Positions 33,332-36,300 of a DNA stretch of 64,000 nt are shown here, piece by piece. The position numbers were made by a program. Origin of the DNA: Escherichia coli (GTDB lineage: Bacteria; Pseudomonadota; Gammaproteobacteria; Enterobacterales; Enterobacteriaceae). How positions within the stretch are numbered: position 1 is the first letter of the stretch; the number at the start of each line of letters is the position of its first letter. The stretch lies in the NCBI RefSeq assembly GCF_029227855.1, contig NZ_CP074356.1; one strand, given 5' to 3'.

Positions 33332-36300
33332 GGTTATGCGCTGATGCCTGATGCGGCGCGGGCGCGTCTTATCATACCCTGGAAGTCTGCGCCCGAATCG
33401 TAGGCCGCCTCCGCTATATTAACTGGCATTGGCAAATTACTCGTCACTACCTTTATTCATGTTTTTTTGGTCTTCATCCGGATAATGTTTTTTTAGATAT
33501 TCCAGGACGTTTTTATTGACCTTGTGTTGCGTATACACCCACCCTTTCCAGTAATCAGGCTGGTCCAGGTAAACTTCTGGCGGAATGGTGAAATCAGAAA
33601 GCGTTAACCATTCGGCTAATAGATCGGGGTTTCGTTTCTGGATTAACTGCAACAGCATAATCAGTGACATAGCTGAGGCAGGAGCCGTACTATCGCCACT
33701 TAAATATTTCCACACTGTTGACCGGTTCGAACGAAAAAGGATCGGTAGCAATGCCCGGTCCAGATTCATTTCATTAAAAATCTTCTCAAATTCATTCATT
33801 TAAATTTTCCTGCCTGGCGTAAACCTCTTAAAAATTGAGATTTATCAAAGAAACGCATTTTAGCACACATCAGGAACCGCTTCACGTTTAGTCCAGAAAC
33901 AGAATTTATTTCGCTTATCAAAACAAGTCTTTACTCTTTTTTACATTGAAAGAGCACAAAATGATTTTCGATTTTATTTATATAAGAAACATTTTTTGTT
34001 TCTTATTGGTGGTGTTTACGCTTACACCAGACAAAAATGCGCTTTACATCACACAAATGGCGGCGTAGATTTCGATTAAATTGCAACGCAGTTTATTTCT
34101 TAAAACAATATTATTTGTTTCTTATAGAAACATTAATGCGACTTATTTTGAACAAGAGAAAATGAATGAAAACTGTAAACGTAGCTTTACTGGCACTCAT
34201 AATTTCAGCAACATCCAGCCCTGTTGTTTTAGCTGGTGATACCATTGAAGCGGCGGCAACAGAGCTTTCAGCCATTAACTCTGGCATGTCGCAATCGGAG
34301 ATTGAGCAGAAGATTACCCGCTTTTTAGAACGCACAGACAACAGCCCCGCTGCGTATACCTATTTGACTGAACATCACTACATCCCTTCTGAAACACCTG
34401 ATACCACTCAGACTCCCACTGTCCAGACAGATCCTGACGCAGGACAAAAAACCGTTGCCGCTACAGGTGATGTACAGACAACCGCCCGTTATCAGAGCAT
34501 GATCAACGCCCGACAGTCTGCGGTAACTGATGCCCAGCAAACGCAAATTACAGAGCAACAGGCGCAGATCGTAGCCACACAAAAAAACGCTCGCCGCGAC
34601 TGGAGATACGCAAAATACTGCGCATTATCAGGAGATGATTAATGCCAGACTGGCGGCTCAAAATGAGGCTAATCAGCGCACTACCACGGAACAAGGGCAG
34701 AAAATGAATGCACTGACAACCGATGTGGCAGCACAACAGCAAAAAGAAAGGGCTCAATACGATAAACAAATGCAAAGTCTGGCGCAGAAGTCTGTCCAGG
34801 CACATGAGCAAATTGAAAGTCTGAGACAAGATTCCGCACAAACGCAGCAACAGTTAACCAACACGCAAAAACGGGTCGCAGATAACAGCCAACAAATTAA
34901 CACGCTCAATAACCATTTCGATTCTCTGAAAAACGAAGTTGAGGACAATCGTAAAGAAGCCAATGCGGGAACTGCATCAGCCATCGCTATCGCCTCACAA
35001 CCACAGGTGAAAACCGGTGACTTGATGATGGTGTCAGCGGGAGCGGGAACCTTCAACGGTGAATCTGCGGTGTCTGTAGGAACATCTTTTAATGCCGGAA
35101 CGCATACGGTACTTAAAGCAGGTATTTCTGCGGATACACAATCTGATTTCGGTGCGGGTGTCGGCGTGGGATATTCGTTCTAATTTTAACAGCAATTTCT
35201 TATTCGCAATTTTCCGTACATTATTTAAGGTTAACAATGATGAATAGCTCCATTAAATCGTTTTCCCTGCTGGCGGTTATATTACTGGCTGGCTGTAGTT
35301 CACCCACTTCCCGCATCGCAGATTGCCAGGCGCAGGGCGTCAGCCATGACACCTGTTATCTCGCAGAACAACAGCGTCAGACGGCTATTTTAAGTGCATC
35401 CGAGGCGCAGGCATTTAAAAATGCAGAAGCCGCACAACATGCCCAGGCGGCAAAGAAAGCCATTTATAAAGGATTTGGAATGACCTTTAGAATGAGCAGT
35501 AAAAACTTTGCTTATCTCAATGATTCATTATGTGCAATTGATGAAGACAATAAAGATGCCACTGTTTATCAGTCAGGTCTGTATAACGTCATTGTTTATC
35601 ATCACACAGGAAAAGTCGCCTTAATGAAGGAAGGTCAATTTGTGGGTTATTTAAAATGAAGGAGCAAAGGAAAATACCCCTGACGCATATTATGATTATC
35701 GGTGCGTTTATTTTTGCCTTCTTGCAAGTAGTATTATTAGCCTCCCTGGTTCACGCTGTGAATGTTAACAACGAAATCCAGGAAGGCTTATTTCAGTCGG
35801 GGCGCATTATGGTAGAAAGTTTGCAGCATATTCTTTCGGTGCAAACGGGGATTAACTGATTTTCACCCCGCCCGATGATGACAGCAGCCGGAGAGATTTT
35901 CGATAATCGGGCAGTCGGCGCTGTCATCACCAGGGCAGGCATTCGCCAGCGCCAACAGCTGGTTGCGCATGGATTGCAGTTCTTCGATATGTCGCTCGAT
36001 CTCCGCCACTTTCTCCAGGGTGCGACGTTTGACGTCGGCACTGTGACGCTGCGGATCGTTAAACAGATTCACCAGTTCGCCGCTCTCTTCCAGGTTAAAG
36101 CCCACCTGGCGCGCCTGGCGCAGTAAGGTCAGTTCGTTGAGATGCTGCTGCGTGTAGGTTCGATAACCATTTTCGCTGCGCATCGGCGGCGTCACCAGCC
36201 CCTTCTCTTCATAGAAGCGGATTGCTTTGCTGGTCAGGCCGGTAATTTTTGCTACATCGCTAATGTTCATCGTTCGCGCAACGCCTCCTGTGCTTTATTA

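Follow-up and report, generated by a model that had tools for sequence, protein, structure and literature searches.

In Escherichia coli, a divergent intergenic region of 366 base pairs (bp) separates the gene of a 120-amino-acid (aa) XRE-type helix-turn-helix (HTH) protein from a short YadA-family adhesin operon, and this region is analysed here within a stretch of 64,000 nucleotides (nt) from assembly GCF_029227855.1, contig NZ_CP074356.1 (the window; coordinates are counted from its first letter). A preliminary description of the same DNA had presented two palindromes with a shared half-site as paired operators. Instead, approximately seven units with an AGAAAC core extend over the whole intergenic region, the two palindromes are of opposite polarity, and on the best reading of the sequence they are the most visible members of a row of phased, operator-like units. 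We lean towards the view that this multi-operator array is read by the neighbouring XRE-type protein, probably in a repressive and autoregulatory manner, and controls the adhesin promoter.

Palindromes and phased units in the intergenic region

An inverted-repeat scan recovered both palindromes, with their shared half-site and their spacers of 5 and 3 nt, where the preliminary description had placed them:

33982-34006, no strand assigned: site 1, ATAAGAAACA-TTTTT-TGTTTCTTAT, with 10-nt arms (33982-33991 and 33997-34006) that are 100% complementary and a 5-nt spacer
34116-34132, no strand assigned: site 2, TGTTTCT-TAT-AGAAACA, with 7-nt arms (34116-34122 and 34126-34132) and a 3-nt spacer

The distance between them, previously put at about 125 bp, is 130 bp when taken from centre to centre and 119 bp between the direct copies of the 10-mer. 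The 10-mer TGTTTCTTAT is present in exactly three copies in the window, all inside this stretch of 145 bp, and the arrangements AGAAACA-N1-9-TGTTTCT and TGTTTCT-N1-9-AGAAACA each occur there once, as against never in 100 shuffles. Similarly, six of the 29 AGAAAC hexamers of the window are located between 33849 and 34131 (283 bp). Since AT-rich DNA forms palindromes easily, a separate null was computed from 5000 dinucleotide-preserving shuffles of the 366-bp intergenic region alone. Of these shuffles, 84 (1.7%) produced a perfect inverted repeat with arms of 10 nt or more, and 11 (0.2%) produced two separate inverted repeats with a common 7-mer arm. Composition alone is therefore an improbable, though not astronomically improbable, source of the paired palindromes, and conservation across genera is the stronger argument. 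Chance was rejected on the basis of these shuffles together with the ranking of window sequences by a position weight matrix (PWM) from other genera, described below.

The units conform to the consensus (G/A)TTTC-N5-GAAAC, in which AGAAAC is the strong half and the half-site centres are 10 bp apart, or approximately one helical turn; within the window the full unit was found in this region alone. The putative units, together with the two predicted promoters, are:

33840-33854, plus strand: unit ATTTA-TCAAA-GAAAC, directly downstream of the predicted -10 of the HTH gene; candidate autoregulatory operator (in most loci GAAAC keeps a fixed distance of approximately 51 nt to the start codon of the HTH gene)
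33857-33865, minus strand: predicted extended -10 of the HTH gene, TGcTAAAAT, predicted start near 33850 (sequence reading; conserved)
33886-33900, plus strand: unit GTTTA-GTCCA-GAAAC (A(G/A/T)AAAC in 7/7 rows of the cross-genus alignment; PWM rank 3 in the window)
33976-33990, plus strand: unit ATTTA-TATAA-GAAAC, the right half of which is the left arm of site 1 (GAAAC at a fixed offset across loci; PWM rank 6)
33998-34012, plus strand: unit GTTTC-TTATT-GGTGG, with a right half that is degenerate in E. coli and complete in other genera (GTTTC-CAATA-GAAAC in locus L011; cross-genus comparison)
34043-34071, plus strand: predicted sigma-70 promoter of the YadA operon, -35 TTTACA, 17-nt spacer, -10 TAGATT, predicted start near 34078 (consensus scan and conservation)
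34073-34087, plus strand: degenerate unit CGATT-AAATT-GCAAC at the predicted start site (GAAAC in nine other loci, at +38 to +40 from the -35)
34096-34106, plus strand: degenerate, shortened unit TTTCTTAAAAC (full form TTTCT-TATA-GAAAC in L017, L011 and L022, at +60 to +62)
34117-34131, no strand assigned: perfect consensus unit GTTTC-TTATA-GAAAC inside site 2 (right arm AGAA.C invariant across genera)

The opposite polarity of the two palindromes, site 1 having the core GAAAC-N7-GTTTC and site 2 the core GTTTC-N5-GAAAC, is best explained if site 1 consists of the right half of one unit and the left half of the next, and is not an operator unit itself. Its core would then arise because the strong halves of adjacent units face each other, the 22-bp unit spacing less the 15-bp unit leaving a gap of 7 bp. 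Site 2 would correspond to one complete unit and site 1 to a junction, hence two palindromes of opposite polarity as opposed to equivalent operators. This bears on the dimeric regulator that had been proposed: a plausible candidate does exist in the HTH protein, the gene of which is divergent from site 1 and 183 bp away, but one symmetric dimer cannot read both palindromes alike.

Conservation within E. coli was assessed in an alignment of seven variants with identities of 84-100%. At site 1, AAGAAAC-N7-GTTTCTTAT is invariant in all seven, and the 7-nt spacer differs (ATTTTTT, CATTTTT, TATTTTT or GGATTAA). The arms of site 2 are kept as GTT[T/G]CT-NNN-AGAAAC, and in one strain the central triplet TAT is flipped to ATA. 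A 60-bp block between the sites (34030-34088), which holds the predicted adhesin promoter, is 100% invariant, against differences of up to 16% between these variants in the rest of the intergenic region. Only Escherichia has the TTAT extension and perfect arms of 10 bp.

Across genera, seven loci were aligned with a mean column identity of 65%, and the invariant or nearly invariant columns comprise the promoter, as GCTTTAC.T.ACA-17-G.GTA..TT, and the AAC and GAAAC cores. In a set of 12 diverged intergenic regions from related loci, GAAAC exceeds expectation more than any other 5-mer, with 50 occurrences observed and 8.1 expected (z=15), and GTTTC was observed 26 times against 4.7 expected. Moreover, GAAAC occupies fixed offsets from the -35 across genera, at -193, -147, -57, +38 to +40, +60 to +62 and +82 to +84, the last three being 22 bp apart, with the first of them at the predicted transcription start. 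Upstream, complete GTTTC-N5-GAAAC units are present at -68 and -45 in other genera; of their E. coli counterparts, the one at -67 is weak on the left and strong on the right, and the one at -45 retains a strong left half but has lost the right.

As an independent test, the PWM was built from non-Escherichia loci only. Its consensus, TTGTTTCTATTAGAAACAAA, is palindromic (GTTTC-N5-GAAAC), and its top three matches in the 64-kb window are all located in this region, with site 2 the best (17.1 and 16.2 bits). By flank score, the unit at 33840-33854 ranks eighth among the 108 GAAAC occurrences of the window, and the unit at 33886-33900 is one of just two sequences in the 64 kb that match GTTTC-N5-GAAAC with no more than one mismatch. 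These comparisons support the sites behaving as conserved cis-regulatory elements.

The region had also been described as very AT-rich and compatible with H-NS silencing. Its GC content is indeed 30-33%, compared with 50-60% for the flanking core genes, and one explanation would be that H-NS silencing of AT-rich acquired DNA essentially sets expression, the palindromes being by-products of composition. The sequence TCGATTAAATT at 34072-34082, inside the invariant block, resembles the H-NS high-affinity motif, and a 2012 report by Totsika reportedly describes H-NS repression of the E. coli trimeric autotransporters EhaG and UpaG. However, composition explains neither the exact sharing of a 10-mer, given the 0.2% of shuffles noted above, nor the constant position, from genus to genus, of a GC-containing pentamer amid drifting AT-rich spacers, and as a full account of the region this explanation is highly improbable. 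Silencing by H-NS and control by a specific regulator can nevertheless coexist.

The neighbouring protein and its proposed role

The candidate regulator is encoded at the far end of the intergenic region:

33437-33799, minus strand: HTH gene, 120-aa XRE-type helix-turn-helix protein, annotated as hypothetical (UniProt name of the O157 orthologue, IHP3)

A word-indexed search with the 120-aa protein yielded 21 clusters and an exhaustive profile search 23 clusters at 50% identity. No curated family was matched, there being neither a Pfam nor an NCBIfam model for the protein, although family members match the MqsA_antitoxin, Xre-like-HTH, HTH_3 and HTH_26 profiles below threshold (best E-value 2e-5). 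AlphaFold2 supplied with a 22-sequence alignment returned a confident model with a predicted local distance difference test score (pLDDT) of 92.3, whereas a shallower alignment of 12 sequences gave an unusable one (pLDDT 59.8). The top Foldseek match of the confident model is the DNA-binding domain of HigA2 (probability 0.99), and sequence searches of the PDB with both family profiles returned noise only. On this evidence the 120-aa protein is of the XRE HTH type, with an additional helical C-terminal half. No match was found between the 120-aa protein and the beta-containing C-terminal dimerisation domain of the Aca2/YdiL/SO3848 group, to which it is accordingly not assigned. The family is carried by just four of the 100,044 species genomes scanned and is thus a narrow one. 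Separately, positions 56-105 of the family profile, corresponding to the C-terminal, non-HTH half, are matched by 11 stretches of a 2772-aa protein (P0028), and this module may exist as a repeat within a giant protein.

Next, the association between the HTH gene and the adhesin gene was compared across loci. A divergent YadA_anchor gene lies beside the HTH gene in most of the loci retrieved (12 of 14 distinct loci outside E. coli, down to a protein identity of 44%), including those of Pseudocitrobacter, several metagenomic enterobacteria and homologues of 44-48% identity, usually with 356-382 bp between the two genes. The divergent neighbour has no recorded Pfam hit in three loci (L010, L012 and L017), Symbiopectobacterium being among such cases; pairing could not be scored at L022, where the locus is too short, and L025 has no called gene at this position. 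Homologues that keep NRST at the start of the recognition helix (L023 and L026) keep GAAAC, and L026 has two copies 22 bp apart just before the ribosome-binding site. Conversely, in L024 (GCA_012689215.1, intergenic region 2770-3066) a 44%-identical homologue, the one case examined with HRST at the helix start, has a divergent YadA gene, and the intergenic region contains no GAAAC but three copies of TTTCTGC, a change of motif that may reflect altered specificity. This weak co-variation of protein and motif, seen in very few cases, is suggestive support for the HTH protein as the reader of the units.

With respect to the promoters, TTTACA-17-TAGATT is the sole good sigma-70 match that a consensus scan found on the plus strand of the region, and the extended -10 assigned to the HTH gene is conserved as TG(G/C)TAAAAT in loci down to 44-48% protein identity. 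Units border both this predicted -10 and, for the YadA gene, the predicted start, and the unit at 33840-33854, directly after the predicted -10 of the HTH gene, has the position expected for autorepression. An additional element, TTTAC-TCTTT-TTTAC at 33931-33945 (GTAAA-N5-GTAAA on the other strand), is conserved in the Escherichia and Pseudocitrobacter loci. It is similar to the CpxR box consensus; it may belong to the HTH promoter or provide a further regulatory input.

Both palindromes had been placed in the promoter region of the autotransporter. They flank the predicted promoter, and site 2 is close to the start codon (34 nt) but is situated in the predicted 5' untranslated region (5'UTR), at approximately +39 to +55, and not in the promoter proper. 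This raises the question of whether the palindromes act in RNA, with site 2 and the downstream units forming 5'UTR hairpins that would influence translation or stability and to which the HTH protein might bind. Indeed, site 2 and two degenerate units are downstream of the predicted start site, and site 2 folds as a 7-bp hairpin (-5.0 kcal/mol, z=-4.0). There is also a precedent in Aca2, one of whose inverted repeats (IR2) is in the 5'UTR, where a hairpin is conceivable and an RNA role has been proposed, not shown (PMC6765145). Against this, shuffled sequence folds as well as the 5'UTR as a whole does (z=-0.14), conservation of the left arms stops at Escherichia, and no compensating change accompanies the T-to-G substitution in L003-L005, observations on which a structured 5'UTR was rejected. 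The motif is also present upstream of the promoter and beside the divergent one, positions from which it would enter a transcript in antisense, if at all, and a search of Rfam 15 at E<=1 matched no family in the intergenic region, the sole match being REP/naRNA4 at 33301-33378, outside it, such that a described RNA was likewise rejected. A role in RNA is, on this balance, very unlikely. An intrinsic terminator was discarded as well, since a scan found none at either site, the arms are AT-rich and no T tract follows.

In the mechanism that we favour, the neighbouring HTH protein would bind the units, one of which, just past the extended -10 of its own gene, would provide autoregulation. Two further units would lie upstream of the adhesin promoter, at approximately -102 to -66 from the start site, and up to three between +1 and approximately +55, in a 22-bp phase that corresponds to two helical turns and would place them on the same face of the DNA. 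The adhesin promoter would be repressed when the downstream units are occupied, possibly with reinforcement by cooperative contacts to the upstream pair through a loop of approximately 130 bp, and H-NS may also silence the AT-rich island. Repression is suggested by the sites downstream of the start site, and cooperative looping, which the preliminary description had also raised, is possible in that one group of sites upstream and one downstream of the predicted promoter have a compatible geometry. We infer the identity of the binding protein, repression, oligomerisation, looping, the part played by H-NS and the start sites from these arrangements.

Several points weigh against this mechanism. 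The co-variation of protein and motif comes from a single divergent case, the k-mer counts were obtained from related, and hence non-independent, sequences, and both promoters are predictions from consensus and conservation. Two of the three downstream units are degenerate in this window. Repression is a guess from position, and a role as an anti-silencing activator, which fits the upstream sites, is equally compatible. Moreover, the strong half-site nearly always has the same orientation as the adhesin gene, and beyond Escherichia the left halves show little conservation; this pattern fits tandem or head-to-tail recognition, or another class of protein, at least as well as a symmetric dimer. 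In an extension of this idea, the 120-aa protein would found an undescribed, adhesin-dedicated HTH family that polymerises head-to-tail on same-oriented AGAAAC sites every two helical turns, coating or wrapping the promoter and the 5'UTR and maybe also reading the repeats in mRNA, a dual DNA and RNA control of the kind discussed for Aca2. We regard this as quite unlikely, but if head-to-tail polymerisation were true the architecture of the switch would be distinct from that of a simple dimer-palindrome repressor.

The same features could indicate another reader of the GAAAC repeats, namely a host-wide regulator such as a tandem half-site binder of the OmpR type, with the HTH protein having another target or acting as a co-factor. 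The uniform orientation of the strong half-sites and the regular 22-bp phasing resemble tandem-site arrays, the OmpR b-half-sites at ompC and ompF contain GAAAC, and the CpxR-box-like element at 33931-33945 suggests that other factors may act here. However, every GAAAC-bearing locus also has the HTH gene, and the variant of the HTH lineage in L024 lacks the GAAAC motif. Furthermore, the non-Escherichia PWM is palindromic, the full unit is absent from the remainder of the window, the left halves (GTTTC, ATTTA) lack the AC of OmpR-type half-sites, which are GNNAC direct repeats at 10 bp, and the spacing of the units is off by one. To our knowledge, the consensus sequences of CRP, FNR, Fur, LexA, PhoP, RcsAB, NarL, EvgA, TyrR, Cra and NagC include none that fits both the core and the spacing. 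A host-wide reader of the repeats is accordingly considered unlikely, and control by the neighbouring XRE-type protein is preferred.

A phase-variation switch was also considered, in which the inverted copies ATAAGAAACA (33982) and TGTTTCTTAT (34116) would flank an invertible promoter segment of 124 bp. An inverted pair with 35-nt arms of 71% complementarity does enclose the predicted promoter. However, all 1413 E. coli genomes that carry the region give a single unbroken alignment covering at least 80% of a 421-bp query, which would be impossible with an inverted 124-bp core, and there is no recombinase gene in the island. The probability left to such a switch is negligible.

The cassette and its distribution

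The gene order in the window is fetAB, qmcA, ybbJ, the island (33252-35862), cueR, a type I secretion system and the giant adhesin gene siiEA. The island consists of four genes, namely the minus-strand HTH gene and, on the plus strand:

34166-35183, plus strand: short YadA-family (type Vc, trimeric) autotransporter adhesin, 338 aa if intact (YadA_anchor match, E=7e-12)
35237-35859, plus strand: two small co-oriented genes, for a 140-aa lipoprotein-like protein and a 67-aa membrane protein (both conserved cassette partners)

The earlier designation of the downstream gene as an autotransporter is thus borne out. The cassette is inserted between ybbJ and cueR in approximately 26% of complete E. 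coli genomes (1413-1416 of 5426), O157:H7 among them, as a single copy in each. The stretch from ybbJ to the HTH gene contains, at the island's edge, a repetitive extragenic palindromic (REP)-type element (33301-33378) that matches Rfam naRNA4 (RF02564) with 66 bits, above the gathering score. Past cueR, from 36267 to 43117 and beyond, are a HlyD-type adaptor gene, a type I secretion ATP-binding cassette permease/ATPase gene and the giant BapA-related adhesin gene siiEA, which is annotated as frameshifted in the reference genome; cueR is thus flanked by two adhesin systems.

In the window a +1 frameshift within the A7 run at 34581-34587 divides the YadA-family gene into two open reading frames, 34166-34642 and 34635-35183. 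Approximately 1029 other complete E. coli genomes with the same allele align with a one-base difference, and JNEC-KY178, which was aligned directly, has six A; the frameshift is either a private mutation or a sequencing error. In several E. coli lineages (L002-L005) the passenger part of the adhesin differs, and the annotated start is 370-740 bp further downstream, despite which the control region and the start of the signal peptide stay conserved. It appears that the adhesin head is exchanged and the switch retained.

A literature search returned no mention of IHP3, and combining trimeric autotransporters with cueR or ybbJ retrieved nothing on this locus. In annotation, the genes of the cassette (regulator, trimeric autotransporter, lipoprotein and small membrane protein) are known only as hypothetical proteins and a "YadA family adhesin". 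A local regulator with its operator motif would offer a cheap route to the conditions under which a cryptic adhesin is produced, and the motif would permit definition of the regulon and supply a name and a function for a protein family without a Pfam or NCBIfam model. What the proposal offers is better annotation and a locus amenable to experiment, not a new principle.

Comparison with known systems

Inverted repeats in promoters are bound by solved relatives of the 120-aa protein, among them Aca2, HigA2, MqsA, the C proteins of restriction-modification (R-M) systems and SinR. The closest parallel in layout is Aca2, the anti-CRISPR-associated autorepressor of phage ZF40, which has two inverted repeats with a common core and spacings of N6 and N8, one over the promoter and one in the 5'UTR, conserved across homologous loci (PMC6765145). 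The region examined here likewise has shared-core repeats of differing spacing, one of them in a predicted 5'UTR, and conserved across loci. However, the core is GAAAC as opposed to the TTCG of Aca2, the putative regulator gene is divergent from its target whereas Aca2 is in the same operon, approximately seven phased units are present in place of two sites, and the target is an adhesin and not an anti-CRISPR.

For SinR, the biofilm repressor of Bacillus subtilis, a 7-bp motif is found in several copies and orientations at biofilm promoters (PMC3163267). SinR is a Gram-positive master regulator that has a tetramerisation hook and a known antirepressor, SinI; the present locus shows no evident antirepressor, and there is no sequence relationship between SinR and the 120-aa protein beyond the HTH fold. 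The C proteins, MqsA and HigA2 differ in that their operators are few and adjacent and their targets are R-M or toxin genes, whereas the present locus has no toxin or R-M partner.

The locus resembles the looping systems of GalR, DeoR, NagC and LacI in having groups of sites on either side of the core promoter, the centres of site 1 and site 2 being 130 bp apart, but these regulators belong to unrelated protein families and 130 bp is no obvious whole number of helical turns. Finally, it shares with E. coli autotransporter genes reportedly silenced by H-NS (upaG and ehaG, for example) the AT-rich promoter region of an accessory adhesin, although a conserved array of GC-containing pentamers is not a feature of H-NS. 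Set against these systems, the switch is of a conventional kind, and what is new is the undescribed family of its regulator.

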